From Planctomycetota bacterium (GTDB lineage Bacteria; Planctomycetota; GCA-002687715; DRQF01): a stretch of DNA of 43,565 nucleotides. Under the pieces are notes generated by a model that was not told where the DNA came from, searched no databases, and saw only the letters and a list, made by a program, of their open reading frames with translations. Below are positions 18,413 to 43,271 of this stretch, one piece after another. A program made the position numbers and the translations under genes. The stretch is taken from the NCBI GenBank assembly GCA_036479435.1, contig JAZGFI010000267.1:1-43565 (forward strand). The letters run 5' to 3'. The first letter of the stretch is position 1, and each line of letters starts with the position of its first letter.

Positions 18413-19693
18413 TTAGAACTTCAAGAAGTCTTCTAGGTCTCTGGCCAAGAGCACTTCGATGTTCCAGCGCGTGGCGTTGGTGTAGGCCTCGGTGGCTTGG
18501 AACCAATTGACGTCGGCGTCTTCGCCCAAGTCCGCTTCGGGGTCGGGGTTGTTGCCCAAGACCAAAAAGTCGACGGACGGGGAGAACTTGTCGGCGACCG
18601 TAGCCCCAAAGTCGCGAAGAATCGCGGCTGAGCGCTGGTTGTCGAAGCGGCCCGGCAGGTTGCCGAGGAAGTAGAAGGTGTGTTGACCTTCGGAGTCGTA
18701 GTAGGGATTGGTGATGAAGTCACCGTTTTGAGTGGTGGCTCCATGCTCCACCGCGCACAAGGCGCGACGAGCTTCGATCTTCTTCACCACGACGAAGCCG
18801 TGATATTCCCGGACTCCACCCTTCAGCACGCCGTAGCTGCGAAAGCGCGTGCCCCCACGAAGCTGCTTGTTGCTGCCGATGTCGATCCAGCACATGCCGG
18901 CGCGTTGGTCGACGCTCATGACCTTGCCATCGGGCTCGGCCGAGACGGTTTCGTGGCGCAATGCACCCTTGACCTGACGCACCTCGCGGTCGAGGGTATT
19001 CGTTTTCTCTTCCATCTTCTGCATCGCAGCCTGAGTTTCCGTGAGGCGGGTCTCGAGCGACTCCGTCAAGGAAGTGATCTGGCCTTGAGCCACCACCAAG
19101 TTGTCGTCGGACTGCTTAAGCTGCGTGGCCGCGCGATCCTTGTTGTCGGTCAACTCAGATTCTTTGGCCTGAATGCTTACTGCCTGCTGCTCGATCAAGG
19201 TGTCGTTGGCCTGTTCCGCACTCGTCGTGGCGTTACGAGCCGCAGAGAGATCACGCTTTAGGCGAGTGATCTCTTGACCCTGCGCATCGAGTTTGGCCTG
19301 AATGGGATCCAAGAGCTGCGTGATCGTGGTGACGGACTCGCCGCCACCCGAAAGAGCGCGACCCTCATCGACAACCTTGCGCACGATGCCAACCGCAGGT
19401 GCCACGGTCGTGTCGATCCAAGCGCTGTTGCCTTCGTCATCAAGACCCGTCGGCTCGGGAAACTCGGACAAGCCGAGAACCTTCGTGATGGAATCAATGC
19501 CTCGCTTGTACTCAGTGAGTTTGCCCTGCGATTCCAGAAGGTCGTCTTTCGCGACCACTTCGTTTTTGACTGCTTCCTCGTGGCCTTTGTACTCAGAGAA
19601 CCAAAGTCCCCACCCCACGAGCGCGATTACAAGCGCGCCCACAAAGAAGAGAATGTTGACCGCGCCTCCTTGACGCGAAGAACTGCGCATCAT
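18413..19693 (-). CDS. Membrane-anchored coiled-coil protein with a beta-barrel and a C-terminal BRCT-like domain
   Basis: AGGAGG RBS before the ATG at 19693. N-terminal RQG plus TM helix, long heptad region, IDIGS..L..G motif, then F.F.G.L...ILRDFGATV...SPSVDFLVLG...A..WNIEVL (BRCT pattern). Confidence 0.85.
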   Translation of the reverse strand: MMRSSSRQGGAVNILFFVGALVIALVGWGLWFSEYKGHEEAVKNEVVAKDDLLESQGKLTEYKRGIDSITKVLGLSEFPEPTGLDDEGNSAWIDTTVAPAVGIVRKVVDEGRALSGGGESVTTITQLLDPIQAKLDAQGQEITRLKRDLSAARNATTSAEQANDTLIEQQAVSIQAKESELTDNKDRAATQLKQSDDNLVVAQGQITSLTESLETRLTETQAAMQKMEEKTNTLDREVRQVKGALRHETVSAEPDGKVMSVDQRAGMCWIDIGSNKQLRGGTRFRSYGVLKGGVREYHGFVVVKKIEARRALCAVEHGATTQNGDFITNPYYDSEGQHTFYFLGNLPGRFDNQRSAAILRDFGATVADKFSPSVDFLVLGNNPDPEADLGEDADVNWFQATEAYTNATRWNIEVLLARDLEDFLKF

Positions 19694-19704
19694 CAAGCCA
19701 TGCC

Positions 19705-19864
19705 TCCTGGTTGCAAGTAAAGGAAGGTCATCCCTTCGCCTTGCAATCGTTTTCTCGCGCTCAGGGCGCGAGACTTGGTGTTTCCGTCGTTCCGTCCGAC
19801 CTGGAGTCGGAATCGGTTCCCCGATCGGCAGGATCTGCCGAATCGCTCCGGCACGAGCCCGTCC
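19705..19864 (-). promoter_or_regulatory. Structured 5' leader (five tandem hairpins, 8 GGA motifs)
   Basis: Stems at 19711-19746, 19753-19773, 19795-19811, 19812-19825 and 19825-19841. Confidence 0.45.
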
Positions 19865-20377
19865 CGAAGTGGCTGTAACCATACAGGACCAGCCCGCCGG
19901 GGAAAAGGCTAAGACAAAATCGGCTGCGAAGGCTAAGTCGAGCGGCTCGCGCCCCTTATCACTCGTACTCCCGAAAATGGGCGCAGGGATGCCTCCGGGT
20001 AGCGCCCAGGAGCAAATTTAGACCCAAAAACGATTGATGAAAACGCCGCCGACCTGCTACATTTCGAGCCGGTCGTGCCCCAGTTCGGGGAAGCCGGGGG
20101 GGGGGCCGACATCCGTCAGCCTCTCCTGCTCCTTTGGCAGACCCTTCGTTCAAACGCGGGTCAGCCCCCGAATTTTGCCTTTCTCGCCCCTCCGCGGAGA
20201 ACGCGGTGCGGTCGAAATGGCGGTACTTTCCTGGCACAATCGAAATTCCCACCTAAACCCTCATGATCGAGATTCGGTGAGAACTTCCAAATTCCACTTC
20301 GACTGTCGGAGCGGCAACGTAAGGAATAAGGAACAAACTGGGTGCGGGCCGGGGAAAGCCGCGCTTTAATGCTGTAG

Positions 20378-20460
20378 CCCTCTCCTCAGATCAGATCCCA
20401 AAACCAAACCGATAGACATTTCCTCCACTCTCCTCGATCGCGAGATCCCTCATTTTTCCA
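20378..20460 (+). promoter_or_regulatory. C-rich/G-poor rut-like leader upstream of coaE-rho
   Basis: About 33 C versus 8 G in 83 nt, many YC dinucleotides and no obvious SD. Confidence 0.35.
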
Positions 20461-20477
20461 TGTTGCATGTGCAAACC

Positions 20478-21089
20478 ATGACGATCGTCGTTGGCATCAG
20501 CGGCGGCATTGGCAGCGGCAAGTCGACGGTATCCCGTCTTTTCGCCGAATGCGGAGCCGCGGCGTTGAACGCCGACGAGGCGGCACGTGCCGTGACGGAC
20601 CAGCCCGAGGTGAAGGCCGCGTTAAGAAGACGATTCGGCGACGGCATTTTTGCCGAGGATGGCGGTGTCGACCGGGAAATCTTGGCCTCGCGGGTCTTTG
20701 ACACCACAGACCCGGCCGCAAGTCTTTGGGAACGGACGGCGCTTGAAGCCATCCTGCACCCTGCGGTTCGAGAACACTTGGACCGCCGACTCGCTCAACT
20801 ACGCCTCGATGGCAGGGATCTGGTGGTGCTCGACGTGCCTCTGCTCTTTCAGTCCAAGTACCAAGACGAGTGCGATCACATCGTATTCGTCCAGACAAAG
20901 CAGGAAACTCGGCGGCAATTCGTCGCCAAACGCGGCTGGACCGCGGAGGAACTCGACCGCCGCGAGGCGGCACAGACTCCTCTCGAAGACAAAAAACGCC
21001 AATCAACTGAGATCATTGAGAACGACGGTGATGTCGTTCGACTGCGCGCTCAAGTGCAAGCTATCTTTCGCAAACTCACGGCCGAATAA
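20478..21089 (+). CDS. coaE: Dephospho-CoA kinase
   Basis: [13 protein letters not shown]-loop, [25 protein letters not shown] and IIENDG motifs. The start could be 9-18 nt further upstream. Confidence 0.95.
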
Positions 21090-21103
21090 TACGGAGACTT
21101 TCG

Positions 21104-22756
<1,653 letters not shown>

Positions 22757-22807
22757 TAAGCCACACGGCCATTGTCAGCCCTCTACAGCGCCGACCGCCA
22801 ACAAGAC

Positions 22808-22845
22808 AGCGCCCTAGGTCAAGCAACTCGACCTAGGGCGTTTTT
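22808..22845 (+). terminator. Intrinsic terminator after rho
   Basis: CGCCCTAGGTC...GACCTAGGGCG stem followed by TTTTT. Confidence 0.85.
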
Positions 22846-22872
22846 CGTTGACTGGTACCCGTTCGCGATCTC

Positions 22873-25800
22873 TTAGCGCGGGCGTTCTTGCAGCTGGTTC
22901 CGAAACCAAGCTGCCCACTGAATCTGAGCAACGGACCGGTCTTCAGGCGTAGCATCGCGTCCAACGTTGCCGATTGACGATCCGCGCGCGTCCGCCAGGA
23001 TTTCCTGGGCTCGGAGTCGAAGGGGCCACGAGACGGACTCCAAAGCGTTCAGCATCAACGACAAGACACGATGATCCTTCGTCTCCCCGCGCAGCCAGGG
23101 CCCAAAATCCACGGCTCGGCGCCCGTCCCGCTGGAGCGCGTCAATGAACCAACGATCGGGGCCCTTGGCACCCTCAGCTTTCCACCAGGCGCGCCAGTTC
23201 TCTTGCAACTCTTCGGGGCTGTCGCCCTGCGCCGGCCGAAAAGTCAAAGCCTGTAGTGCTTGGCGCGCCTCTTCCGCAAGCGCGACATCGACAACAAGGT
23301 TGATCAACGCCGGAGCCGCCTCACCGCTTCTAAGCGCCGCCAACTTGAAGGCGGTATTCCTTCGGATAACGGGACTCGGCGATTTCAACAATGGTTGAAG
23401 GATCAGAGCCCGGTCATCGCCGAAGATCTGGCCAGACTCGCGAATCAACTCCGCGGCCAAGTCCAGATCCTCCGTCGTCTTGATCTTTTCGCCCAACAAT
23501 TCGGCGCGGTTCGCTAGCGATGACTCCGAGAGCAGCGCCAGCAATTTTCGCCGTCCCGACGCCGACGATTCTGCGTTGAGCATCTGCATAAGCGCAATGG
23601 TGGCTCTGGGTGACTTGGTGTTGGCCAGTGCCAACCGGGCCGCACTTGCAATTTTGGGTTGCGAGGCAAGATGTTGCAAACGGTCGACGACCGACTCCCC
23701 TCCCAACTCGGCGACAAGTTGAATGGCCTCAATGCTCTTTTCGCTGGGATTTTTCTCGATGTCATCGAGCAAGGCACGGGCGTAGACCGCACGCAGCTCG
23801 GATCTGTTCGCCAATAGCGTCGATAAGATCTTCGCTTGCCCCTCGGTGCCCGCCGTCAATTGTCCGATCACGATCTTGCGAACGTCTTCGCGCGCCAAAT
23901 CCGCGCCGAGTGACCGCAGGCCGGCGTGCTTTAGCTGAAGCTCTTGGTTCTGCAAGGCCAATAGGCGTTCCGACCGGGGACGAAGCTCCAAAAACTTCGT
24001 TGCCCGATGGCCCGTACTGCCGGGCACGACAATGCCATCGCTATTGCCTGCGATCGCGGCAGCTAGGTCAAGAGCCTCCAGAACTCTCTCGGTGATTTCC
24101 GCGCCCTTCATTTGCGCGAAGAAATTCAACAACTCGCGCGTGCCACTGGCTTCGAGGACTTCTTTTCGCGCTAGACCTAAGATCCCCGCTCGTTCGGACT
24201 GAACAAAGCCTGGTCCAGCGCGTCGAAAACTCGCCACGGCCGCACGCCGGGCCGAAGTCGAGAGCCGATCAAAAGCGCCAAGGGCCAGCTTTGCGTTGTG
24301 CATCGCGGCCTCTTCGGGGCTCAAGTTGGCCAGAAGATTGCGATGGCGATGGCGCCAAGTCTCACGATCACCATCTGAATTCGCGTCGTAGAAATGCTGC
24401 CATTGCTGGCTATCCACCAGATCTTGAAGTTCGGCCGCGAGGGTCGAAATTCCCTCGGGGATCGCGGAATGAAACACCGATCGGCGACTCGCTCGATCGA
24501 GGCGAACTTGGATTTCCAAGACATCGCCACTCCAATCAGGGTCGATGCCTGCGCTTGGCATCTCGAAGAATCCGTACTTCACAATTTTGGTTCGAAGCTC
24601 CTGCATCGTCGCCTCTGGGACCACCAGATCACGGCTACTTACCAGCGACGAGGAAGACCGACCCTCGGCTACGATCCGGTGCCGCGCTCCAATTTCGTCG
24701 CCCTTGCGCCTAAAGAACTCCAGCTCAAAGCGCGTCGCGGCAGCAACTGGTACCTCAGAGAGCTCTCGGATCGCCACAAAGGTGCGACCGTTCTTGGACC
24801 ACCATCTTCTCCAATCGGCTCCTCTCGAGCCGAAACTCTCACCGGTGATGTAGGCAACTTTCTCGAAACAGATCTTGCGAACCGATCCGATGTCTCGGAA
24901 GAGATTGCCGCTAGTTGCCGTTTCAATGAGCTTAAAGGGCACCAAGCCGTTTGCGGCTTTCCGCAAGCGGGCGTCAGAACTTCGCCGCGCCAAGTTCGAT
25001 GCCGCAATCGCCGCCGCCGCGTTTTCGAGGCCGCCTCGGACACGCATGAGTTTCAACAGGCGAGTCACAAACTCGGCGTCATCGGGTAGGAGCCGTTTTT
25101 GCGTCCGGTCCTCCGCCTTGGTCAAGGCAATGAGAGCGTAGCTGGAAGCGCGAAAGAGCCCCGTGCGGGCCAGTCTTTGCAACTCAGCATGAGTCTTGGG
25201 GTCGTCGAAATTCGACAAGGCGTCGGCCGCATAAGAAGCCACACGCGGTGAACGATCTCCGAGCCTCGACAAGAAAGGCTCCGCGACCAAGGGGCGGTCG
25301 ATCCGCGACAATATCTGAAGCGCTCGAAACCGTACGAGATCAGTGGGGTGACGAATGAGCGACCGGAGCGCGTCGTCGAATCGGAGATCAATGCGCTTTG
25401 GAATGCTTGAGAAAGCGTCGCGCGCTACGCGTGCCGATGAAGACTCTAAAAACGGCAGTAATGTCGCGGTACCGGCCGTCGAGTCAATCTTGACGAGAGC
25501 ATCGAACCAGATCTTGACCGCGATCTTGTTGCTGACGTCTTTGACTTTCGCCGCGAGAATCGGAAAGGCGCTGGCTTCTTTAAGCTCGCCTAGTGCGTAG
25601 ACCGAACCCGCGCGGACTCGCCAGTCATTGTCTTCAAGAGCAGCCATGAGCTCGGGCACCACGGCACGGCCCGCGATGACCAGCCTCTTCGCTACGTCGT
25701 AGCCACGCGCCGAGGGCCAGCGCTTGAGCTCGTCAATGAGTCGGGCATGATCGCCAACGCGCTTTTTCTCGGCCGGCCTCTTTTGCCGGTCTGCCGCCGC

Positions 25801-25926
25801 TGCGTCCTTTTTATTGATCGGCGGACCAAAAAGCGGCTCCCCCTCCTCTTGGCCTAGAGCCAAGTCGCGGCTCATGAAGATCAAGGTGAAGGTGCACAAG
25901 ACGAGGAGCAAGGTACGGCTAGACAT
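22873..25926 (-). CDS. Exported HEAT/PBS-lyase-like repeat protein (1017 aa)
   Basis: Signal peptide, multiple HEAT repeats (LEDNDWRVRAGSVYALGEL, LGDRSPRVASYAADAL, LLKSPSPVIRRNTAFKLA) and three W..WW/W..WF cap motifs. Confidence 0.85.
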   Translation of the reverse strand: MSSRTLLLVLCTFTLIFMSRDLALGQEEGEPLFGPPINKKDAAAADRQKRPAEKKRVGDHARLIDELKRWPSARGYDVAKRLVIAGRAVVPELMAALEDNDWRVRAGSVYALGELKEASAFPILAAKVKDVSNKIAVKIWFDALVKIDSTAGTATLLPFLESSSARVARDAFSSIPKRIDLRFDDALRSLIRHPTDLVRFRALQILSRIDRPLVAEPFLSRLGDRSPRVASYAADALSNFDDPKTHAELQRLARTGLFRASSYALIALTKAEDRTQKRLLPDDAEFVTRLLKLMRVRGGLENAAAAIAASNLARRSSDARLRKAANGLVPFKLIETATSGNLFRDIGSVRKICFEKVAYITGESFGSRGADWRRWWSKNGRTFVAIRELSEVPVAAATRFELEFFRRKGDEIGARHRIVAEGRSSSSLVSSRDLVVPEATMQELRTKIVKYGFFEMPSAGIDPDWSGDVLEIQVRLDRASRRSVFHSAIPEGISTLAAELQDLVDSQQWQHFYDANSDGDRETWRHRHRNLLANLSPEEAAMHNAKLALGAFDRLSTSARRAAVASFRRAGPGFVQSERAGILGLARKEVLEASGTRELLNFFAQMKGAEITERVLEALDLAAAIAGNSDGIVVPGSTGHRATKFLELRPRSERLLALQNQELQLKHAGLRSLGADLAREDVRKIVIGQLTAGTEGQAKILSTLLANRSELRAVYARALLDDIEKNPSEKSIEAIQLVAELGGESVVDRLQHLASQPKIASAARLALANTKSPRATIALMQMLNAESSASGRRKLLALLSESSLANRAELLGEKIKTTEDLDLAAELIRESGQIFGDDRALILQPLLKSPSPVIRRNTAFKLAALRSGEAAPALINLVVDVALAEEARQALQALTFRPAQGDSPEELQENWRAWWKAEGAKGPDRWFIDALQRDGRRAVDFGPWLRGETKDHRVLSLMLNALESVSWPLRLRAQEILADARGSSIGNVGRDATPEDRSVAQIQWAAWFRNQLQERPR

Positions 25927-26020
25927 TTGGAGATTTCCCTTCGAAGCTGGTCTCGCCGCGTTCCCAAGGAGCGGCGTGAACTTCGACTGTGAATTGGTTT
26001 CGATTTTGAGCGAAGCGAGG

Positions 26021-26566
26021 CTAGTGAAAGTAGGTCGTGATCTTTAGGTCGCCGACTTGATTGTCATGCATCACCAAAAAGTAGTGGCGAGCGTCCTCGA
26101 GTCCGGTTTCCTTGTTGCGATAGTAGACGCGAACCACCACCCCACCCTCACGAAAACCGATCACCTTGGCACGTTTTTTGGCCACATCGGCTTCCAAGGA
26201 CTTGCCGGCAATAGGAGTCCCGTCCAGAAAGTCCTCATAGCTCACGACCTCAAGGCGATTCGAGGCCTGTATCTGACGTCGAAGAGAACTGAGCTTCTCC
26301 CGAAAGGCCTTCTCGAGCGCGTCTTCGGTCTCGTAGTAGCCCTTTTTGCGACTCCCCAGAATAAAAGGGACATCGACAATCTGCATGATGTCTTTGATGT
26401 CTCCGTTAGAAAGCGATTGGTGGAATCTTTTCGCGAGCTCTCGGCTGGAGATCTCTCTAGAGTCATCTTTTTGCTCGCAGGCAGTGACGAACGCAAACGT
26501 CATCGCTATCAAGCCCAAGCAGACCAAAGTCACGAGAGACTCGGGTCGGAACGATCGTGCACTCAA
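26021..26566 (-). CDS. Hypothetical lipoprotein
   Basis: Hydrophobic N-terminus ending in an FVTA-C lipobox; GAGG RBS before a TTG start; co-oriented between recG and the HEAT gene. Confidence 0.75.
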   Translation of the reverse strand: MSARSFRPESLVTLVCLGLIAMTFAFVTACEQKDDSREISSRELAKRFHQSLSNGDIKDIMQIVDVPFILGSRKKGYYETEDALEKAFREKLSSLRRQIQASNRLEVVSYEDFLDGTPIAGKSLEADVAKKRAKVIGFREGGVVVRVYYRNKETGLEDARHYFLVMHDNQVGDLKITTYFH

Positions 26567-26594
26567 TTTGCTTTACCTCGCTTAGATACTCAGG

Positions 26595-28703: not shown

Positions 28704-28709
28704 GAGTCC

Positions 28710-28937
28710 CTACTTCTTCTTGCGATTGGGGTGCTGAGGCAAGGGAGCTTTTTCCCGCAGGCGCGCAACGATGACCTCGGCGTCGAGACCGTGCGGCTGC
28801 ACGCCGACGGCGAGCGTTTCGTGGAAAGCAACGATGCACTCCGAGCAAGGCAAACCAAACTCCAGCAGCACGTCTTTCGCCTTGGGGTGCGCGTCAACGA
28901 TGTCAGCGACGATCATCTCTTGGGAGTAGTCAGCCAT
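28710..28937 (-). CDS. DUF1858-like small CxxC protein
   Basis: M.VADIV..HP...DVL..FGLPCSEC....ETL..G...HGLD pattern; 75 aa from the ATG at 28937. Confidence 0.85.
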   Translation of the reverse strand: MADYSQEMIVADIVDAHPKAKDVLLEFGLPCSECIVAFHETLAVGVQPHGLDAEVIVARLREKAPLPQHPNRKKK

Positions 28938-28944
28938 GGGGGGC

Positions 28945-28974
28945 ACTCTATCAGAAGCCTCAAAACCACGCCAA
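28945..28974 (-). promoter_or_regulatory. Putative promoter giving a leaderless DUF1858-recG transcript
   Basis: TTGGCG-18 nt-TAGAGT (TG-extended), 7 nt upstream of the ATG, with no SD. Confidence 0.45.
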
Positions 28975-29060
28975 GACCCGTTTGCGGGGAACTTCTCGCA
29001 AAGGGGCAGCACATGATATTATTTCGGCCACGAGCACGAACTATGGGAGTTGTTTTCGAC

Positions 29061-30529: not shown

Positions 30530-30577
30530 GATCTGAGTTTGCCGCAGTGAGGAGCCGCTGATAGCAGCTAGGTCGGA

Positions 30578-33082: not shown

Positions 33083-33735
33083 GATCGTTCCGCCTCCTGT
33101 TCGCCACTGATGCGCGCCAAAGTAGATCTGAGTTCTAAACGAGCGCGATGCAGTCTCGAACGCACCGTCCCCACTGGAATCTCGAGCAATTCGGCGATCT
33201 CCTCGTAGGGGCGTTGCTCGATATCGCGCAATAAAATGATCTCTCTAAAATCCGAGATTAGGCTCTGCAAGGCCTGAATGAGCTGCCCCTGTCGTTCTTT
33301 GTTCAGCGCATCTCGAGCGGGGTCGTGCGACTTGTCTTCGACGTCTATCGACGACGAGTCCTCGGCGGAAAACGCCGTGCTCAGTGACAACGACACCTTG
33401 GGTCGCGCCATTACCCGACGTTGATCGGACAACACGACGTTCCGAGCGATTCGGTAGACCCAGGTAAAAAAGCCAGCTTGGCCCTGATACCCTTCGAGTC
33501 CGCGCCAGGCGCGAATAAAGGTCTCTTGAGTGAGGTCGAGCGCGAGATCGGCGTCGCGCACCATTCTGGTCACGGTGCTGTAAACCCTTTCGTGATAACG
33601 GCGCATGAGTTCATCGAAGGCCTCCCCGTCGCCCTTGGCTCCGCGCTCAATGAGCAGCGAATCCGAGGCTTCTTGGGCCTTGGGCCCTGAAGTGGCAGCA
33701 GAGGTATCCCCCGTTGTCCTCGGCCTTTGACTCAT
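33079..33735 (-). CDS. ECF family RNA polymerase sigma factor
   Basis: GD.EAF..L, DLTQETFIRAW, F.TWVYRIARN and YEEIAELLEIPVGTVRSRLHRAR motifs. GGAGG RBS before the ATG at 33735. Confidence 0.95.
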   Translation of the reverse strand: MSQRPRTTGDTSAATSGPKAQEASDSLLIERGAKGDGEAFDELMRRYHERVYSTVTRMVRDADLALDLTQETFIRAWRGLEGYQGQAGFFTWVYRIARNVVLSDQRRVMARPKVSLSLSTAFSAEDSSSIDVEDKSHDPARDALNKERQGQLIQALQSLISDFREIILLRDIEQRPYEEIAELLEIPVGTVRSRLHRARLELRSTLARISGEQEAERS

Positions 33736-33769
33736 GCTTCCTCCGATCGTTCCCGCATCTACGACTTTT

Positions 33770-35104
33770 TTACGCTCGATTGAGTGGGAAGCCAAACCCA
33801 GTTCTCGTCAAAAATGCACGATGAGCTCGTCTCAAGACCGTGTCGTCGGGCATGCGGTCCAAAACGACGCCACAGCTCGTATCTCCCTCGGCCGCTGCAA
33901 ATGCCCGGCCCCGAAAACCGCGTTCCTCAAAAAACCCCGACCAGCGTTCTAGGAGTTCTGGGTCTCGACCGACACCCGGCCCGACCAAACACAGCACACT
34001 CGCGGGGTTGCCGCCAAATTCTCGGTCGCCCAGGTCGCTCCAGCGGCTCACGCGGTTTTGTGTTTGCAAGTAGCCTTGCCCACCCAGGTCTTCGTGCCGG
34101 GCCGGGATTTTGTCTTTCCTCGCCCCGGCCGGCCAATAGCGCACGTCGCCCATTGAAGTCAGCGCCAAGGGGCCCGAGGTTTTCATCGGCTCTCCATCGA
34201 TGACGCTAAAGGCGGCGTCCGGCTGTTGGGAGCAGCGGACCTGGAGTCTCACCCCGGTCCGCATCGCGGGTTCGATCGCACGACGGTGAAGGACGCCAGC
34301 TCCGCGACGCGCCATTTCGGAGGCGATGGCATAGTCAATGTGAGCCAGGAGCGCGGCACTCGGAACACAGCGCGGATCAGCGCTTCGGATTCCGCAAACG
34401 TCGGTCCAAATCGTCACATCGGCGCCACCCCAAGCTGCGGCCAAAGCGGTCGCCGTCAAGTCCGATCCACCGCGGCCCAAAAGTACCAAGTCATCATCAG
34501 CACGCGCCCGAAACCCGGTGACAACAGGAACGGCGCCAGCCTCCAACTGCGGTCGCAATGCCTCTTTGATGCCAGCGTCGGCCGCGGCGGAGGGCATCGC
34601 AGCGTCGAAGGGTCCGGAGGCACTCAGGAAATCCGCAGCATCAAAAACGCGCGCCGGAATATCGCGCTCCCGCAGGGCGGCAGCTACCAAGTGCGCTGAC
34701 AAGAGTTCGCCAAGCGATATGAGCTGTCGGACGAGACGAAAATCAAGTGAAGAACGTGCACCAGTTTGCGAACTTGACCACTTCGAAAAATCCGCGGCCG
34801 CCCTTTCGGCCAGTTGCTCAAGCTCGCAGCGAGCCTCCAAGTTGGCGCCGAGTTCTTCGAGATAAGCAAGATGTGATTGGATCAGACGATCAAAGTCACG
34901 TCGCGCCCATTGCGGTTCATCAGCATTCAAAAGACGTGCGAGTTCGTCGGTCACGCCCGACATGGCCGAGGCCACGACGATACGAGGCTCTTTGGTCTTG
35001 AGCGCGCCCGAGCGAGATTCGGCCACGAGGCCCGCCGCGTGTGCAATGCGTTCGGCGTTGCCCAAACTGGTTCCGCCGAACTTGTGAACTGCGAGGTTCT
35101 TCAC
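33770..35104 (-). CDS. lysC: Aspartate kinase
   Basis: HKFGGTS, SAMSGVTD, GELLSA, LGRGGSD.TA and IWTDV.G..ADPR motifs; divergent C-terminal ACT-like region. GTG start at 35104. Confidence 0.9.
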   Translation of the reverse strand: MKNLAVHKFGGTSLGNAERIAHAAGLVAESRSGALKTKEPRIVVASAMSGVTDELARLLNADEPQWARRDFDRLIQSHLAYLEELGANLEARCELEQLAERAAADFSKWSSSQTGARSSLDFRLVRQLISLGELLSAHLVAAALRERDIPARVFDAADFLSASGPFDAAMPSAAADAGIKEALRPQLEAGAVPVVTGFRARADDDLVLLGRGGSDLTATALAAAWGGADVTIWTDVCGIRSADPRCVPSAALLAHIDYAIASEMARRGAGVLHRRAIEPAMRTGVRLQVRCSQQPDAAFSVIDGEPMKTSGPLALTSMGDVRYWPAGARKDKIPARHEDLGGQGYLQTQNRVSRWSDLGDREFGGNPASVLCLVGPGVGRDPELLERWSGFFEERGFRGRAFAAAEGDTSCGVVLDRMPDDTVLRRAHRAFLTRTGFGFPLNRA

Positions 35105-35194
35105 GCTTGGTCCTGGGAACAACTAAGGTCGCGTCTAAGCCACAAGGCTACCGGCATTTTCTCCCAGATCCAAAAGATCAGGACCCTGGGAGCA

Positions 35195-36322
35195 TTATCC
35201 AAGTCTCTCTCTTTGTTCACGGACGCTCTCGTTGGAAAAGACAATCGCCGGCCTCCCAGCGATATTGAGCACCAGCGCGATCCCCAAAACCGTCGTCAAT
35301 AGCGAGGTGCCGCCAACCGAGACCAAAGGCAAAGTCATTCCCGTCGTCGGGACAATACCGAGGTTCACGCCAACATGGACAAAACTCTGCGATGCGATGA
35401 GAGTGCCCACGCCGACACAAACCAAACGTGCGGCAGGATCGCGATTGAGCACCGCAGCTCGAAAAATCAGTTGCAACAACAACAAAATGAGCCCGAACAA
35501 GACGAGGCAGCCGATCAAGCCGGTCTCCTCCGCCACGACTGCGAAGATAAAATCATTCTGACGGTAGGGCAAGGCGTTCAACTGATTCTGCAGCCCCTCT
35601 CCGAGTCCCTGTCCCAAAAAACCGCCGATGCCGATGGAATGCAAAGATTGCTCAAGCTGATAGCCCTCCATCAAGCGGTCGGCGTCGGGGAGCCGACTTC
35701 GAAAGAAGGTCGAGAGAATTCGAGCCTGCTGGTAAGGCTTCAAGAAAAAGAGATACCCCACGAGCCCAAAGCAACCGGCGCTACCCAAAATGGCTCCCAT
35801 TTGGCGCAAGGGCAGCCCGGAACAAAAGAGCATCGCGAGCGCTACGGGGGCGAATAACAAAGCGGTGCCCAAATCCGGCTGCGAAAAAATTAGCATCGTC
35901 GGCACGACAAAGGCGATGCCGGGCATCAGCAAGTCGCGAGGGCGCGCGTCACGGCCGCGAAATCTCAGAAGCCGCGCCAAGGCCACGATGAAGGCAATTT
36001 TCATGAGTTCGGAAGGCTGGATACTGATCCCTAGTTCGAGCCAGCGTTTGCTGTTGTTGCGCACCACTCCGAAGATGGGAACAAGCATCAACAAAAAAAG
36101 TGCCCCACCGTAGCCCAGCCAAGCCCGCCGAATCCAAAAGCGGTAGGGAACCAAAGAGACGAGTGTTCCCGCCGCCAGAGCAATCAGAAACCATCGAGTC
36201 TGAATTTGGGCAAAGTGAATGCCCATCGAGTCGCCGATCGAAGACTGAATGAGGAGCCCGAAGACGATAAGGAGAGCCGTGGTGATCACGATTCCTGCCC
36301 TAAGGATCAAGGGGGGAAACAT
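35195..36322 (-). CDS. rodA: Rod shape-determining SEDS glycosyltransferase RodA
   Basis: KRWL, QPSELMK, QPDLGT, LKPYQ..RI, GYQ..QS, NDFIFAV.AEE.G and G.TLPLVS.GG.S motifs; follows pbp2 with a TGATG overlap. Confidence 0.94.
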   Translation of the reverse strand: MFPPLILRAGIVITTALLIVFGLLIQSSIGDSMGIHFAQIQTRWFLIALAAGTLVSLVPYRFWIRRAWLGYGGALFLLMLVPIFGVVRNNSKRWLELGISIQPSELMKIAFIVALARLLRFRGRDARPRDLLMPGIAFVVPTMLIFSQPDLGTALLFAPVALAMLFCSGLPLRQMGAILGSAGCFGLVGYLFFLKPYQQARILSTFFRSRLPDADRLMEGYQLEQSLHSIGIGGFLGQGLGEGLQNQLNALPYRQNDFIFAVVAEETGLIGCLVLFGLILLLLQLIFRAAVLNRDPAARLVCVGVGTLIASQSFVHVGVNLGIVPTTGMTLPLVSVGGTSLLTTVLGIALVLNIAGRPAIVFSNESVREQRERLG

Positions 36323-38976
36323 CAGCGCAATTCGTCCAAGACGGTCTTGACGATTTCCGCTGCGAAAGGCGCCACATCTTTACCGCGCTTGCTAGTGCGC
36401 ACACAGGTCACAGCGAAGGCAATCCGGGGACGATCCGCCGGGGCGAAGCCGGCGAACCAGGCCTGGTTGAAGGGTCTCCAGCGGCCGCCAAAACCATCGG
36501 CCGTTCCGGTCTTGCCGGCAATCTTATAGCGCGTCGATAGCGCTGGCGCGTAGTGCTTCGCAACGCGGGTCATGGCACGGGTGATGAGGCGCCAATTTGC
36601 GGAGCTGACCAACTCGTGACCACGGTAACGAACCGGATTTTCTTGATCCCCTTGGGACAAAACCAGACGCGGTTGGGCGCTTTTGCCGCGGCCGGCGAAG
36701 GACGCCATCATCGCCGCGATCTCTACCGGAGACATGGACATGGAGCCCTGCCCGATAACAGAGTTTTTGGCGGCATCGTGTTCTCGGACGACCGCGCGAC
36801 GGCGGCGTGCGCTCGATTTTGAGACCGAATGATCGATGCCCGAAAACATGCCGAAGGCTTCGAACCACGACAGGAGCTTTTTTTGTCCGAGCTCTTTGAC
36901 GTGATGCCAAAAGTAGGGGTTCGAGGAGAGGTAGAGCGCCCCCTCTAGATCAAGATCACGGCGTTTGTCCCAACAGTGAAACAACTGGTTGGGGTTCAGC
37001 GTGCCGGACTCCAACAAGGCCGCGGCCGAAAAGACCTTCATGACCGAGCCGGGCGGAGTCCACAGTGAGTCAGCTTCAAAGGCGCGGCTCCAAAAACCGA
37101 CCTCCTCAACTTCCCACTGCATTCTAAGGCTCAATTCGTCTCTCTCTTGAGATGACAAATCTGACTTCACTTCGTTGAAGGCGCGACGGGCACGATCCAA
37201 ACGGATCTGGTCTTCGTAGCGCTCAAAATAACCTTTGCCCTCAATGAGAGGCACGGAGCAAGCGCAAAGAATGTCACCCGTCGCCAGGTCGATCACCACC
37301 GCCCCACTCCCCAAGCGGCCGTCGAGTGCCTCGTCCATCCGTGCGAGAATGGCGTTGGAGCGACGCTGCAAGTCACTATCCAAACTAAGGACGACATCAT
37401 CACCGGCCACCGGCGCGCGGCTCGTTTCAAGCTCGCGAAAACTACCGTCGGGCTGCCGTTCACGGCGCACAACTCCGGGCCACCCCACAATGGTCCCGTC
37501 GATCAAGGCACCATTCGGGTCGTTCAAATCAACCTGCCGAGAGAGACTTGCTTCGAGTCCACCGATAACAGCACCTTTAGATGTCATGCGCCCCAAGAGC
37601 ATGGTGGCCAGACCCTCGGCTTCACCCGGGTAACGTCGGCCGAAACTGGCCCGAATGTCAAAACCGGCACGACGCAAACCAAAAGTCCTCCAGATGCGGT
37701 CCGCAACCTCAAAACTCAGACCTGAGCCAAGGTGATAGGGGATACCGCCTTTGAAGTGCTGAATACGTGTCCACTTCTTGTTGAAAGTGAGGTAGTCCGC
37801 TTCATTGTAGCCCGCTTTGGCCCGGGTAAGTCGACCCACCTCGCGCTCCAAACGGTCGGGACGTTTTGACCAAAGTCCGAGATGAAACGCGAGGACTCGC
37901 CGGCGAGCGTGCGGCAGACGGTCGAATGCTCGGCGGTCAGGGACGGATTCGAACTCGCGCAAGAGCCCTTCCTCGACGCTGCCGGGCAATCGTTTGTCGT
38001 CGCGTGCCCGGCGAAGACTCATCAATCGCGCCCACAGCAAATCGCTGTCGTCCACCGGGAGCCGCAGATCCTCCGCCAAGGCCTCGAGTTCGTCGTCATC
38101 GAGCTTCGATAAGTCATGAGTGCCGAATCGTTGCAGAGCAATGTGGTCGTCGACCGCCGCCATGATCTTTCGCTCTAGGCGCTCGCCAGCACGCCATTCC
38201 TGCGCGAAGAGCTGGTTTAAAAACGAGTCGCGGCTCTCGATATCGAGTTCTTCCGCCAACCACCCGAGCTCGGCCATCTCGTCATCAAGACCCTGCACGA
38301 CGCTGCGAACGTCGATTCCCAAGGCTTTCCCCAAGACTGATTCCCGCTCCAAGCGGTCCTGAACCCGAATCCGTGTCGCCAAAGCGGGATCGTCGGCGAG
38401 GATTACGAGAGCATCCAAGACGCGACGGCGAAGTCGAGAATTGGGTGGAATGACAAGTTCGCCTCGAGGAAAGAGCACCGGCTCCCAGCGACGAGAAAGA
38501 GCTTTTATGTCCGGAAGACAATTTTGGGTGGGCAACTTGAGAAGCGCCTCAAGCAATTCTTCGCGAGCCTCGTAGATCGTCAAGAATCGTCGTAACCGCG
38601 CTTCCACCACGTCGGCTTTCATTTGCGACTTGCGATCACAGAGCCCACGGCAGCGCTCGGGCAGCAGTGCCATTGCCAAGTCGCCCAGGGCGTCAACACG
38701 ATTGCGCTCGCGAAAGCGCACCGGATAGACCCGAAGATCCCAGGTCTCCACGGAAGTGGCGAGTTCAACACCGTTGCGATCCAAGATACGGCCGCGGGGC
38801 GCCGGCAAAAGGATGCTGAGCGTCCGACGGCTGCGGACCGCCTTTCGGTGATCGTCGGCCTCCGCAATTTGGACCTGCGCCAATCGAAGCGTGCCGATGC
38901 CGAAGGCCACCACGAAACCGAAGAACAAGACGGTGAGTCGTTTTTCAAAAGTAAGTTGGAGTGAACGGGCCGCCAT
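36322..38976 (-). CDS. mrdA: Class B penicillin-binding protein PBP2 with a large insertion (884 aa)
   Basis: TM helix, PAPRGRILDRNG, RRYP, GLE, G.DV.LSLD..LQ, PGSVMK (SxxK), SSN (SxN), KTGT and AWFAGFAP motifs. Confidence 0.92.
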   Translation of the reverse strand: MAARSLQLTFEKRLTVLFFGFVVAFGIGTLRLAQVQIAEADDHRKAVRSRRTLSILLPAPRGRILDRNGVELATSVETWDLRVYPVRFRERNRVDALGDLAMALLPERCRGLCDRKSQMKADVVEARLRRFLTIYEAREELLEALLKLPTQNCLPDIKALSRRWEPVLFPRGELVIPPNSRLRRRVLDALVILADDPALATRIRVQDRLERESVLGKALGIDVRSVVQGLDDEMAELGWLAEELDIESRDSFLNQLFAQEWRAGERLERKIMAAVDDHIALQRFGTHDLSKLDDDELEALAEDLRLPVDDSDLLWARLMSLRRARDDKRLPGSVEEGLLREFESVPDRRAFDRLPHARRRVLAFHLGLWSKRPDRLEREVGRLTRAKAGYNEADYLTFNKKWTRIQHFKGGIPYHLGSGLSFEVADRIWRTFGLRRAGFDIRASFGRRYPGEAEGLATMLLGRMTSKGAVIGGLEASLSRQVDLNDPNGALIDGTIVGWPGVVRRERQPDGSFRELETSRAPVAGDDVVLSLDSDLQRRSNAILARMDEALDGRLGSGAVVIDLATGDILCACSVPLIEGKGYFERYEDQIRLDRARRAFNEVKSDLSSQERDELSLRMQWEVEEVGFWSRAFEADSLWTPPGSVMKVFSAAALLESGTLNPNQLFHCWDKRRDLDLEGALYLSSNPYFWHHVKELGQKKLLSWFEAFGMFSGIDHSVSKSSARRRRAVVREHDAAKNSVIGQGSMSMSPVEIAAMMASFAGRGKSAQPRLVLSQGDQENPVRYRGHELVSSANWRLITRAMTRVAKHYAPALSTRYKIAGKTGTADGFGGRWRPFNQAWFAGFAPADRPRIAFAVTCVRTSKRGKDVAPFAAEIVKTVLDELR

Positions 38977-38979
38977 GCT

Positions 38980-39444
38980 TCAGAGCCTCTGCAAGAGGCG
39001 GCCCTTCCCAAAAAGCCGCAACACCACCAGAGTCAAGACCGCCGTCCCCAAAGCACGCAAAGTCAACTCGCCGAGGCCGCGAAAAAAGCCGAGTTCAACT
39101 TTGGCCACGCAGAATTCGACAAGTCCCGCCAAACCCGCGGCACCTGCCGCCACCGCAAACTGCGAAAGACCGCGATCCAAACGGGCGCTGCGCCGCCCGG
39201 TGCTGATCATCATGGCCGCCATCAAGAACGCCAACGGCTTCAGTCCCCAGGGCGTCGCGCTGAAAAGCCCAGCGGCCAAACCGAGGACTAATGCCAAGGT
39301 CAAGTCGCGGTGGCGTTCGGCGACGAGAGACGCGGCCAGGCAAAGAGCGAGCGCCGGATCTGGAATCCACCCGTCGCCCCAGCCGAAAGCAGCCAATCCG
39401 GACGCCGAGAAAGTGGCCAAGAGTCCAAAGGCAACAAAAGCCAT
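38980..39444 (-). CDS. mreD: Rod shape-determining protein MreD
   Basis: 154-aa polytopic hydrophobic protein with the PD..L and GL..G......P.G pattern; TGATG coupling to mreC; position in the operon. Confidence 0.75.
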   Translation of the reverse strand: MAFVAFGLLATFSASGLAAFGWGDGWIPDPALALCLAASLVAERHRDLTLALVLGLAAGLFSATPWGLKPLAFLMAAMMISTGRRSARLDRGLSQFAVAAGAAGLAGLVEFCVAKVELGFFRGLGELTLRALGTAVLTLVVLRLFGKGRLLQRL

Positions 39445-40652
39445 CAGCCCCCCCCCCGGCCCTTGCCCAAAAGTCGCTGACGCTCCGTGCGGTGGAGAAA
39501 ACGAAAAACTTCCAGACGGGTACCAAGACCGCAGGCCGCGAAAACTCCCATGGGGTCTTTGGCCAACAACAAACCTTCGGGTCCGAAAACGGGCCCCCTC
39601 AACCTTCGGGTGCGTGAGAATCTCAAGTGACGCCGTGGTTCTCCGCGCTGATCGCCGCCGGTTTCGAAAATTTGCCAGCGGCCATCTGGGCCACGGATGA
39701 GTGAAGCCAGAGTTGTAGGATCTAGGGGGCGGACTCGCGACGTCCCGCGGCCGGCCCAACTGACAACGCCCACGACGATTCCGTCCCGAACGACGAGATC
39801 CCCACTACCGAGGCCCTGGGAATTACCGCCGTCAATCAGCCAAGACCGCTCCGCAAAACTCGAGTCGCCAGCGGAGAGAATGCGCGTTGAGAAGCTCGAA
39901 AAGACGGCCTGCGGATTGACCCTGAATGGAGCGTCATCGGTCGTGCTCGCCAAACCAACCCGATCGATGGGCTGAGTTTGAGCTGCCAACTCAATTCCAA
40001 TTTCGCCGCTCTCTTGATCTTTCTTTACTCGGCCCACGAACAAAGAGGACCCCTTCAGATCGCGCCAAGCCAGGCCTCCCTGCGAACTCGTTTCCAAAGG
40101 GCGGCCTGCACTGGCCTTCGCAATGCGACTGCCTTCGCCGCTCAAGAGCACGGTCTGGAGTTGTCGCTCGCCGTCTTCGCTTAGTATCCGCGCTCCGTAG
40201 CGCGAACGCGGGTGCCCGGGAGTTCGAACCCGCGCCAGGTGTTCCTCGACACGATCCACAAACCCAAGAAAGACCCCCCGACCGTAAACCACCTGGCCAG
40301 GGCGAATACCGTCACGCCAGCCCGCGCCCAACAGAATCGTGCGCCGCTCCGGCAGCACTTCCAACAGGGGCACTGATTCGCCGGAAAAATGCCGCTCCGC
40401 GGCCAGTTCGGCGCGCATTCGTGGTAACTCCGAAGTTTCCGGGTGGTTTTGGATCACCATCAGCCAGGCTTCCGAGAGAGGGCTGGCTTCGTCGCCACGG
40501 GCCAGCGTTTGGATGGAGCCCCAGGGGCGGCTAAAAAAGCGCGCGAGCCCAAGACGCAATTGCTCTCGGAGGGATTCGGCATTCGCCGTTAGCCCCAATG
40601 CAAAAAGAGCGGCGATGACGGCGTGGATGACAAAGAGTCCTCCGCGTTTCAA
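39444..40652 (-). CDS. mreC: MreC-like protein with a duplicated beta-barrel domain
   Basis: N-terminal TM and two copies of the I..G...G...G..V...G..LG.V..V....SRVR motif; AAAGGAG RBS with TTG start; lies between mreB and mreD. Confidence 0.8.
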   Translation of the reverse strand: MKRGGLFVIHAVIAALFALGLTANAESLREQLRLGLARFFSRPWGSIQTLARGDEASPLSEAWLMVIQNHPETSELPRMRAELAAERHFSGESVPLLEVLPERRTILLGAGWRDGIRPGQVVYGRGVFLGFVDRVEEHLARVRTPGHPRSRYGARILSEDGERQLQTVLLSGEGSRIAKASAGRPLETSSQGGLAWRDLKGSSLFVGRVKKDQESGEIGIELAAQTQPIDRVGLASTTDDAPFRVNPQAVFSSFSTRILSAGDSSFAERSWLIDGGNSQGLGSGDLVVRDGIVVGVVSWAGRGTSRVRPLDPTTLASLIRGPDGRWQIFETGGDQRGEPRRHLRFSRTRRLRGPVFGPEGLLLAKDPMGVFAACGLGTRLEVFRFLHRTERQRLLGKGRGGG

Positions 40653-40749
40653 AGCAGCTCCTTTCCCGCGATCGTTCCTCTAAGAGGATGACCGTTGCTC
40701 GACCCCAAACTCAGTTCCAGTCCAGAACGGGCGTTCGGGCGTCGTGGTC

Positions 40750-41808
40750 CTAAAGGTCTTCCGCGCTCTCGAGGATCTCTTTCAAGATGTCGAGGTTTTC
40801 TAGAATGTGGCCTGTGCCTCGCGCCACTGCGGTCAAGGGATCAGCGGCGACGTGGCATTGCAAGTCGATCGCACTATGAATGCGACGGTCGAGGCCGCGC
40901 AAGAGCGCGCCGCCACCGCACAATGTCACCCCGCGATTCACGAGGTCTGCCGCGAGTTCCGGGTCGGTGCGTTCCAAGGTCCGCCGAATCGCCTGTAGGA
41001 TCGACTCGACCGGCTCTTTTAAGGCCTCGCGGATCTCGTCGGAACTCACGACGACGGAGCGCGGCAGGCCGTTACTAAGGTCCCGGCCGCGAACGGTCAT
41101 CTCGTACTCTTGGTCCATGGGGAAGGCAGAGCCGATGCAGATCTTGATCTTTTCCGCCATCTGAACGCCGATGAGAAGGTTGTGAATCTTCTTCATCCAA
41201 CTCGAAATGGCTTCGTCCATCTCGTCGCCGGCCACGCGGATACTCTCGGAGCAGGCTACGCCGGCCAAGGACATGACCGCGACTTCGGTGGTGCCACCGC
41301 CAATATCGACGATGAGACTTCCCGCCGCTTCGCGGATCGGCAAGCCGACCCCGATGCCAGCAGCCATCGGTTCGTCGATCAAAAACACGCGGCGCGCACC
41401 CGCGCGCTCGGCCGAGTTGATGACGGCCTGTTTTTCGACCGGGGTGATGCCCGAAGGGACCGCGATAACGACCTGCGGCGCGGCGAAGATCTTTCGGCCT
41501 CCCTGAACCTTGCAGATGAAGTAGCGCAGCATGGCTTCGGTGACTTCAAAGTCGGCGATCACGCCGTCCTTCAAGGGGCGGATGGCCTCGATGTTCGAGT
41601 GAGTCTTGCCGAGCATCTCTTTGGCCCGCTTGCCGACCGCCTCGCCGTCGAGCAAGACTTGGTTGGTGCCCTTGCGCACCGCCACGACCGAAGGCTCGGC
41701 GATGACGACGCCACGCCCTTGAACACAGACCAAGGTATTGGCCGTGCCGAGATCAATCCCCATGTCGATGGAAAAGACCCCAGCCATTTTGTCGATGAGA
41801 CCAAACAT
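40750..41808 (-). CDS. mreB: Actin-like rod shape-determining protein MreB
   Basis: MGIDLGTANT, EPSVVA, RPLKDGVIADF, EPMAAGIG, VDIGGGTTEVA and GGGALLRGLD motifs. Confidence 0.98.
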   Translation of the reverse strand: MFGLIDKMAGVFSIDMGIDLGTANTLVCVQGRGVVIAEPSVVAVRKGTNQVLLDGEAVGKRAKEMLGKTHSNIEAIRPLKDGVIADFEVTEAMLRYFICKVQGGRKIFAAPQVVIAVPSGITPVEKQAVINSAERAGARRVFLIDEPMAAGIGVGLPIREAAGSLIVDIGGGTTEVAVMSLAGVACSESIRVAGDEMDEAISSWMKKIHNLLIGVQMAEKIKICIGSAFPMDQEYEMTVRGRDLSNGLPRSVVVSSDEIREALKEPVESILQAIRRTLERTDPELAADLVNRGVTLCGGGALLRGLDRRIHSAIDLQCHVAADPLTAVARGTGHILENLDILKEILESAEDL

Positions 41809-42179
41809 AGTTTCCCGCGCCCCTTTGTTGCAGACCGCCCCCAGCGGCTCTTTGCGCCTTCATCCCCAGAAACCAAATTTGGGGCTAGACCGCCGTTTTC
41901 GGATCCCGACGAAGGGACCGTGCCATCGACCTACTCGACCCCATGTGGGTCTAGGCGATACGACGTAAGGGCAAAATTATCAGAAGAGGGATACACCCCG
42001 GAATCGGGGGAGAGCACCAACCACCACCTGCATAGTAGGCCCCTTTTTTTCAAATCGCCAGCGAGAACTGAAAACGGCGCTACGGGTTTGCCCAAACAAG
42101 GGAGTCTCGACGGCGGAAAACTAAAGCCGCGCGCGCCGGCAAAGTTGCCCAAGAGCCAATCCGCTAAGTAACTAGACGC

Positions 42180-42219
42180 AAAAAACCCGCCGACCGGACG
42201 TTGGTCCAGTTGGCGGGTT
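42180..42219 (-). terminator. Intrinsic terminator after the small membrane protein gene
   Basis: AACCCGCC.AC.GGAC / GTCC.GT.GGCGGGTT stem followed by a T run on the minus strand. Confidence 0.8.
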
Positions 42220-42240
42220 CGAATGATTTGCTGGTACTTC

Positions 42241-42411
42241 TTAGGCCATGGGGCCGTCGTTGAAGTGTACCGAGAGCGCGTGGAGCACCGTGAAAATCGC
42301 CGCCAAAAGGAGGATCGTCGTGGTGATGATGAGAGCACTCGTCAGTTCGAGAGCGTTGTCAACGACTTCGACTTCTTCGTCGTAGACGTCATCCATGTCT
42401 TCGTTAGCCAT
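42241..42411 (-). CDS. 56-aa single-pass membrane protein (not in the ORF track)
   Basis: MANEDMDDVYDEEVEVVDNALELTSALIITTTILLLAAIFTVLHALSVHFNDGPMA. GGGAG RBS, starts 17 nt after the upstream stop, and is followed by a terminator. Confidence 0.85.
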   Translation of the reverse strand: MANEDMDDVYDEEVEVVDNALELTSALIITTTILLLAAIFTVLHALSVHFNDGPMA

Positions 42412-42428
42412 GTTTCCGTGCTCCCGGT

Positions 42429-43271
42429 TTAGAGTTTCGTAGCGGTGTCGCCAGCGCGGGGCTGATGACCCGGCGAGGGGATGTAGACCGAACCGACGCT
42501 GCTGCCGACTTCGACGCGGCTGATGCGAACCGTACCGATGAAAGTGGTGCCGCGGACAATGTCGAACTCGTGGCCGTGGGCAATGCCATCGCTGCGGCCT
42601 TTGTTGATCTCAACCAACTGGGTGCCGACATCGAAGCGGACGACGGCGCCGTCGACCTTGGGCTGAGCCTTGGCTGCCGGCGCAGGATAGAGCTCCTGGT
42701 ACCTCTTCAGCATGGCGCTGAGCTTGCCGTTGTCGGCACTCGCCAACATGAGGTTATCCTTCAGCTTGGCGTTCACGGCGTCCATGGCGTCAGCCTTCAC
42801 GTTGGCTTCGGTCGCCACGGATTCGGCTTTGGCTTTGGCGGCCATCGCGTCAATACTCTGCTGGCGATAGGTGTCGACTTGACCCTTCAAGGTGTCGAGC
42901 GTGCCCTTTAGGCCTTCGAAGTTGTTCGTGAGGGTACTCATGTTGCCGCCAGCTTGCGTCAGCTGGCGCTCGGCACTCAACTTGCCGCGCTCTTCAGCGA
43001 CAAGGCGCGTTTCGAGGTTGCTCTTATCATTCTCGACGGCGGTCACGTTTTGCTTGGCCGAATTGAGATCGGTGCGCGACCCCGTGAGTTCGGTCTGCAG
43101 ATTCGTGATCTGACCGTTTAAGTCCCGTTTATTCGCTTCAGCGGTGGCCTCAACCTTGGCCAGCTCTTCCTTCCACTTGGTGTTTTGGTGAAGGAAGGTG
43201 GCGGCGGCGAGGAGAAACCCACCGGCGAGCAACAAGTTAATGACAACGAAAATGCGTGCGACAGCGTTCAT
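42429..43271 (-). CDS. Membrane-anchored coiled-coil protein with a C-terminal beta-barrel (MreC/FlgT-C-like motif)
   Basis: N-terminal TM helix, ~165-aa heptad region and VEINKGRSDGI..G..F.I.R....IG.VRI..V....SVG...GD motif; GGAG RBS. Confidence 0.88.
   Translation of the reverse strand: MNAVARIFVVINLLLAGGFLLAAATFLHQNTKWKEELAKVEATAEANKRDLNGQITNLQTELTGSRTDLNSAKQNVTAVENDKSNLETRLVAEERGKLSAERQLTQAGGNMSTLTNNFEGLKGTLDTLKGQVDTYRQQSIDAMAAKAKAESVATEANVKADAMDAVNAKLKDNLMLASADNGKLSAMLKRYQELYPAPAAKAQPKVDGAVVRFDVGTQLVEINKGRSDGIAHGHEFDIVRGTTFIGTVRISRVEVGSSVGSVYIPSPGHQPRAGDTATKL

Follow-up and report, generated by a model that had tools for sequence, protein, structure and literature searches.

The mre region of a planctomycete contig raises the question of whether the coiled-coil proteins encoded in and near it belong to the MreB/MreC elongasome or to a separate envelope system. 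The contig is JAZGFI010000267.1 of assembly GCA_036479435.1 (Planctomycetota bacterium), of which positions 1 to 43,565 of the forward strand, a stretch of 43,565 nucleotides, were analysed and are referred to here as the window. The window carries mreB, mreC, an mreD-like gene, pbp2 and rodA; the open reading frames (ORFs) of a 280-amino-acid (aa) protein, A, and a 56-aa peptide, C, precede mreB, and a 426-aa protein, B, is encoded 24 kb from this cluster, between tatC and coaE-rho. A and B were found to be anchored coiled-coil proteins with homologous barrels, which are kept in most of the Planctomycetota in which neither mreB nor mreC was found and are jointly absent from the anammox genomes examined. 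We tentatively propose, at somewhat less than even confidence, that A, B and C form a Rod-independent, inner-membrane-anchored envelope scaffold, apparently an undescribed one.

Domain architecture and barrel homology

The three proteins and their domains are located as follows.

42429 to 43271, minus strand: protein A, 280 aa, with an N-terminal transmembrane (TM) segment, a coiled coil of about 165 aa and a C-terminal FlgT-C-like beta-barrel
42432 to 42674, minus strand: barrel of A; model with a predicted local distance difference test score (pLDDT) of 95, best fold FlgT (Z 10.9, root-mean-square deviation (rmsd) 2.9, 78 aligned)
42241 to 42411, minus strand: peptide C, 56 aa, with one TM helix and, in this genome, an acidic N-terminus; its position right after A is conserved
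18413 to 19693, minus strand: protein B, 426 aa, with a TM segment, a 44-residue arm to the invariant Gly74, an insert, a coiled coil of about 120 aa, a barrel and a BRCT fold
18692 to 18955, minus strand: barrel of B, homologous to that of A; best fold FlgT (Z 10.7, rmsd 3.0, 83 aligned)
18416 to 18691, minus strand: BRCT-fold domain of B, without the ligase-type Thr and GSK motif

Comparison of profiles made from 21 A barrels, 18 B barrels and 13 MreC cores gave an HH probability of 99.2 over 79 columns for A against B, but only 54% over 39 columns for A against MreC and 18% for B against MreC. In a tree of 52 rows B formed one group (99/97) and 12 of the 13 MreC segments a long separate branch (100/100), while A did not resolve; the barrel trees rest on only about 90 columns, and one MreC segment (M_12) lies on a very long branch among A. 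By these sequence comparisons, the barrels of A and B are homologous. AlphaFold models (pLDDT 95 for A and 90 for B) each contain a single barrel of about 80 aa, for which the C-terminal barrel of FlgT was the top match in both cases (Foldseek and VIA-align; 3w1e, 8z5n; Z 10.7-10.9). The next structural matches were the N-terminal barrels of V1/F1-ATPases (Z up to 9.3), MreC (7.2-8.5) and pilus-secretin chains (6.4-7.1). A preliminary description of this DNA had tentatively placed A, B and MreC in one MreC/FlgT-like barrel family. The kinship of A and B was borne out, but close paralogy with MreC was rejected on the profile values and the separate tree branch, and the MreC folds proved related but weaker matches than FlgT. 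No MreC family match (PF04085 or NCBIfam) was obtained for either protein.

The same description had started from a short recurring pattern. Its four quoted peptide stretches do occur where it placed them, but the pattern as a literal regular expression matched none of the three proteins, and relaxed versions matched subsets only: the 'core' version missed B and found A and both MreC copies, and 'core3' missed MreC and found A and B. Among the 29,242 stop-to-stop ORFs of the genome, 'core2' had six matches (2-5 in shuffles) and 'core3' four (0-2 in shuffles), one of the latter resembling what we take to be the N-terminal barrel of ATP synthase alpha. The short motif is thus near chance and generic, and was discarded as evidence of kinship.

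A coiled-coil segment was predicted by a crude heptad scan at residues 12-195 of A and at 43-71 and 131-253 of B; the MreC of the window has no heptad segment. The plan of TM segment, long coiled coil and barrel that had been ascribed to all three proteins therefore holds for A and B but not for this MreC, whose two 'repeats' mark where two MreC cores in tandem begin (two domain matches). Two full cores were also found in L041 and L060 (2 of the 24 MreC ORFs scored in loci), and several other genomes have double MreC Pfam matches in one frame.

The stalk of A is of nearly fixed length. In an alignment of 45 A sequences, with 14-42% identity to the A of the window, the distance from Trp33 to the barrel residue Gly208 is 175 +/- 3.4 residues (range 168-182), and total lengths of 273-303 aa agree with this near-fixed spacing. 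At 0.15 nm per helical residue, the stalk would be about 25 nm long. B has a near-fixed arm of 44 residues to the invariant Gly74, then an insert that varies, and finally a rod of about 120 residues. One N-terminal hydrophobic segment is present in every A and B sequence listed.

No family specific to either protein was found in Pfam (45 orthologues each, top 25 families shown) or NCBIfam. A has a weak Pfam match to FlgT (PF16538, E 0.009), which is below the cut-off. The Atlas neighbours of A and B are hypothetical proteins, mostly from Planctomycetota, and the best 60 of 677 hits of a PDB sequence search with A were generic coiled coils only. Profile comparison and the structural matches of the models support the earlier description of A and B as anchored coiled-coil proteins with FlgT-C-like folds. 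FlgT, of the Vibrio flagellar T ring, has only the barrel in common with them; its N and middle domains are absent from A and B, in which a TM helix at the N-terminus and a long coiled coil take their place, and no flagellar clusters occur among their recurring neighbours. With MreC (PF04085, COG1792) they share the TM-stalk-barrel plan and a related barrel fold (Z 7.2-8.5), and A is encoded upstream of mreBC; MreC, however, has a two-barrel periplasmic core whereas A and B have a single barrel, and A and B are retained in genomes without mreBC.

Distribution, gene order and the elongasome

Profile searches with A, B and MreC covered a phylum sample of 151 Planctomycetota genomes. A further sample consisted of 91 genomes of the class of genome G163, which is Planctomycetia by likeness to named records; the genomes in these samples are related and are not independent events. 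In the phylum sample B was matched in 149 genomes, A in 142 and MreC in 140. The figure for B includes weak matches in families f30 and f35, of which the five checked were BRCT-only, in LigA-like frames of 677-854 aa, so the count for B is nearer to about 139 of 151; for A, three of the nine misses were recovered with a wider profile, one of them only in part. With both proteins present in most of these genomes, the proposed restriction to the lineage of the window is not supported. In the class sample A was found in 89 genomes, B in 90, MreB in 32 and MreC over cut-off in 26 (G244, whose only A match lies inside its B gene, and G177, whose only B match has no barrel, were dropped from the counts). 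Both A and B are kept in 56 of the 59 genomes of this class in which neither mreB nor mreC was detected. They are thus not obligate parts of the elongasome, and the dependence on it that had been suggested earlier is not supported.

The reverse situation is found in family f30, which carries hydrazine synthase (3/3) and MreC and was treated as anammox. No B was found in 4/4 and no full-length A in 5/5 f30 genomes tested. Two further f30 genomes, outside this count, gave weak A matches. Of the weak A-profile matches in anammox genomes, the one locus opened (L180) encodes a 177-aa TM/coiled-coil protein without a barrel and was rejected as A. In the anammox loci mreBC-mreD-pbp2 are retained and A is not: lnt directly adjoins mreB in L159 and L160, which have neither A nor C at this place, and in a third anammox mre locus other genes lie upstream and A is not present. 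A correlation of pairwise identities between A and B (r 0.91) was not used as evidence, since kin share it.

Where the mre genes are present, A is often beside them. Of 117 genomes with listed matches to A and MreC, 33 had them on different contigs and 84 on the same contig, and in 72 of these 84 A lies upstream of mreC, on the same strand and within 6.5 kb, which confirms across the phylum the link of the 280-aa protein to the mre genes noticed in the window. The recurring order is moeA-lnt-A-C-mreB-mreC-mreD-pbp2-rodA. In the class sample A is directly upstream of mreB in 8 of the 10 mreB-bearing genomes outside family f7. This arrangement would suit A, with C, as an accessory subunit of the Rod elongasome and partner of MreC or PBP2, as would the A-like genes found ahead of aroA-mreB in 15 of 19 metagenome loci (described below). 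We consider this explanation very unlikely: A and B outlast mreB and mreC in the genomes counted above, anammox loci retain the mre genes and pbp2 without A, A is beside mreB in only 1 of 22 f7 genomes, and a terminator-like hairpin lies between C and mreB in the window.

That hairpin and the putative promoter of A are located as follows.

43484 to 43511, minus strand: sigma-70-like site TTGACA-16-TAAAAT upstream of A (11/12 match; 1 found versus 0.6 expected)
42178 to 42220, minus strand: terminator-like hairpin and U-run after C, before mreB (-31.3 kcal/mol, z -5.2)

Together, the sigma-70-like site ahead of A and the strong hairpin with its U-run after C make it likely that A-C form their own transcript in this genome. 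C indeed belongs with A. A C-like peptide was found right after A in 32 of 34 loci (including 14 of 20 close-relative loci) and in 27 of 31 further loci, 59 of 65 in total, compared with 5 of 145 control positions, and it keeps this place also where A is no longer beside mreB.

Several variants of the A locus were observed. Just upstream of A, genomes of the class of G163 often encode A', a paralogue that consists of TM segment and coiled coil (about 180-290 aa) and has no barrel (L050, L051, L052, L053, L100, L108-L111, L113 and L148), and A occurs as a tandem pair in L056, L156 and L157. In L054 the gene directly after A-C (9829-11016) encodes a divergent MreB with 35-39% identity to two other MreBs from planctomycetes, in a genome without detectable MreC.

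A-like proteins of about 270-300 aa, with a TM segment, a coiled coil and a single barrel, are also encoded in 19 of 34 metagenome loci examined (L183-L214), which were found with a related protein. The order there is ileS-dksA-lspA-lgt-rluD-[A-like]-aroA-mreBC-pbp2, with mreB next after aroA in 15 of the 19, so that the A-mre gene link seems to extend to another lineage; from Atlas clusters, our guess for its taxon is Omnitrophota. Lipoprotein-maturation genes lie upstream of these A-like genes, as lnt does for A in many planctomycete loci. In V. spinosum recF adjoins mreB according to its table, which is uninformative on A.

A and B themselves are mostly found in different loci, their frequent neighbours being ftsY/nusB/ribH, moeA, polA/coaE/rho and tatC/cinA. 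No fts or flagellar genes were present among the recurring neighbour clusters of either, and no recurring pilus or secretin genes beside them, although a few B loci have pilin-like ORFs on the far side of rho. The two genes do meet in two places: L154 has lnt-A-C-mreB-mreC-B in a single run, and in L148 B is divergent from A'-A. In another reading, A-C and B have a related origin but separate and unrelated functions, and their neighbourhoods merely conserve housekeeping gene order; this would fit their mostly different loci and the wide occurrence of the barrel. We give it little probability in view of these two independent juxtapositions, the joint absence in anammox and the joint near-universal retention elsewhere.

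Protein B, its BRCT fold and Planctopirus limnophila

The C-terminal domain of B, which the preliminary description missed, matches the BRCT family (Pfam PF00533) with 23.8 bits against a cut-off of 21.3; matches at E<=0.01 were obtained for 18 of 45 B orthologues, and the structural Z of the fold is up to 9.1. B shares this fold (Z 8-9) and sequence similarity with the BRCT domain at the C-terminus of LigA, and the fold with that of RFC. In DNA-binding BRCT domains Thr-Gly, an Arg and the Lys of GSK make up the phosphate pocket. B lacks the conserved Thr and GSK motifs: columns 343, 352 and 404 are L/V/I, variable and Y/I, respectively, whereas the LigA-like ORF of the same genome has VTG and AGSK. 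The BRCT domain of B is predicted to sit at the end of a membrane stalk, outside the cytoplasm, which suggests that a BRCT fold may act there.

The N-terminus of B (19640-19693 in the window) has a basic-Gly-hydrophobic, prepilin-like pattern that is present in 30 of 66 B but only 5 of 41 A sequences; it resembles PilX/GspK-type prepilins and is common in orthologues outside the class of G163. Together with FlgT as the top fold, the matches to type IV pilus secretin assembly chains (3jc8_Ta, 6ve2_O; Z 6.4-7.1) and the presence of an essential T2SS-like (type II secretion system-like) locus in P. limnophila (as treated in PMC10632474), this pattern raises the question of whether A and B serve a secretin- or pilus-type machine as its inner-membrane stator or collar, their barrels forming a ring round an outer-membrane pore in the manner of FlgT and TsaP. 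Such a role is distinctly unlikely. B has no Glu5, the 25 best Pfam families for 45 B sequences include no pilin N-terminal family, the one GspH match of B is weak (E 0.053), and none of the four PilM clusters of the genome is on the contig of A and B.

B may already have been scored in genetic work. In P. limnophila, Plim_3010 adjoins polA (Plim_3011); its index is 0.0145, compared with 0.06-0.15 in the neighbouring genes, and the essential-set figure shows it as 'COG1792' (locus data and figure of PMC10632474). The index equals 22/1517, which gives a protein of 505 aa, and the same arithmetic reproduces the published length of polA; the B proteins of f7 have about 490-525 aa. In f7, 8 of 22 loci have B divergent from polA, as do 5/5 named Planctomycetaceae loci, the latter found with a query taken from such a locus. 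From this size and position we infer that Plim_3010 is very probably B, although divergence from polA in only 30 of 64 B loci overall (from coaE in 7; tatC in 9) counts against the identification, and no P. limnophila B sequence was present among the 86 matches listed or the 10 clusters opened. MreC of this species is Plim_2621 and non-essential, according to the passage on it in PMC12283558, which suggests that the COG1792 'MreC' label on Plim_3010 hides a different protein. As a side observation, two B genes stand in tandem in L067 and L073, with more such pairs in the phylum search.

A candidate envelope scaffold

The scaffold that we propose would be built as follows. A, B and C would be held together in the inner membrane by a bundle of their TM helices. 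The coiled coils of A and B would serve as fixed-length rods, the arm and rod of B (about 44+120 residues) matching the approximately 165 residues of A, so that the structure could reach about 25 nm across the periplasm. The distal barrels may then lie against one another as a ring or collar, which would space or brace the outer envelope and place envelope-building enzymes, and the BRCT fold of B would be a protein-docking head. FlgT itself forms a ring round the flagellar LP ring. Oligomerisation and the periplasmic location of A and B are predictions. Neither MreB nor MreC would be needed for the scaffold to work. The genes of the module probably lay with lipoprotein-maturation and Rod genes early on and were kept after the loss of those.

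The component folds are known, and the plan resembles that of known single-pass coiled-coil scaffolds. The TsaP/PilQ-associated ring compares with A and B through a related barrel in pilus secretin assemblies (Z 6.4-7.1), and PilN-PilO and FtsL-FtsB are single-pass coiled-coil pairs that brace envelope machines. A and B, however, have no LysM, PilN/O or FtsL family match over cut-off and no pil or fts gene context. Membership in the MreC, FlgT and DNA-binding BRCT families likewise fails on the comparisons above.

A number of observations weigh against the scaffold. The N side of the hydrophobic segment is the more positive one in only 38 of the 66 sequences of B and 12 of the 41 of A; given this weak charge bias, the C-out topology of A and B is a prediction, and the anchor of A could be a cleaved signal instead. 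The stalk of B varies in length (Gly74 to Gly256, 162-233 residues), and G121 has an A-like gene but no B. Of the 18 A-B pairs listed on the same contig, 10 are 14-30 kb and 6 more than 80 kb apart, so the two genes are usually not adjacent. The barrel is promiscuous: 11,583 protein clusters matched at E<=0.001, 116 of the best 150 were multi-barrel proteins, and the A barrel matches those of F1/V1-ATPase and MreC with Z 7.5-9.3. So widespread a fold implies no function. Finally, the index of Plim_3010 falls between the cut-offs of 0.013 and 0.022, a transition zone in which the gene may be domain-essential, and the essential-set figure also lists the domain-essential polA (both in the parts of PMC10632474 on gene scoring).

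Envelope shaping and division without FtsZ are treated as an open question for planctomycetes, and P. limnophila does not need MreB, MreC or canonical peptidoglycan genes (passages of PMC10632474 and PMC12283558). A, B and C are three candidates for that question. Their conservation extends from classes with mre genes to budding families without them, and the anammox genomes examined yielded none of the three. One of them, B, has probably already been scored essential in a genetically tractable species, which makes the question directly testable. In a stronger version of the scaffold, A, B and C would supply the essential core, so far missing, of envelope morphogenesis or division without FtsZ and MreB in the Planctomycetota other than anammox bacteria. 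They would form a coiled-coil ring of fixed length across the periplasm, with a BRCT head outside the cytoplasm, and would have arisen beside the Rod operon and outlasted it. This we regard as rather unlikely.

A related explanation gives A, B and C the central structural role in FtsZ-independent division or budding of non-anammox planctomycetes, where they would act like an FtsLB-type coiled-coil hub at the constriction site. A and B are present across the classes sampled, and neither turned up in the anammox family, the only group that has a proposed ring protein of its own, kustd1438 (as described in part of PMC5177795); canonical division and peptidoglycan genes are non-essential in P. limnophila, and the probable B is in its essential set (both from the essentiality data of PMC10632474). 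The neighbour clusters of A and B, on the other hand, contain no recurring fts genes, A-like proteins stand beside mreBCD in another lineage and are also present in Atlas clusters that are commonest in Verrucomicrobiota and Omnitrophota, and Verrucomicrobium retains an essential FtsZ. There is, in our view, only a modest chance that this explanation is right, and the Rod-independent scaffold is preferred.

No literature description of A, B or C was found by title or abstract start, but Jogler et al. 2012 (J Bacteriol 194:6419) may list them as planctomycete-specific. The periplasm and division passages of the review PMC12673574 do not mention such proteins.

The remaining features of the window are as follows.

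39444 to 40652, minus strand: MreC, a neighbour outside the A/B family, with two tandem MreC cores at about 39945-40379 and 39519-39899
40750 to 41808, minus strand: mreB, a neighbour
35195 to 39444, minus strand: mreD-like gene (below cut-off), pbp2 and rodA, neighbours
18349 to 18383, minus strand: 15-bp terminator-like hairpin after B
16686 to 22756: recurring neighbourhood of B, with tatC downstream and coaE and rho divergent

Three neighbouring genes have unusual domain structures. PBP2 (36322-38976) has 884 aa, with a large insertion ahead of the transpeptidase domain. TatC (16686-18071) has a C-terminal extension of about 220 aa past the Pfam domain, and a long TatC is also found in L074, L077, L078 and L080. 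A LpxC-FabZ-type fusion is encoded at 4346-5644, inside a bamA-skp-lpxC-lpxA cluster.

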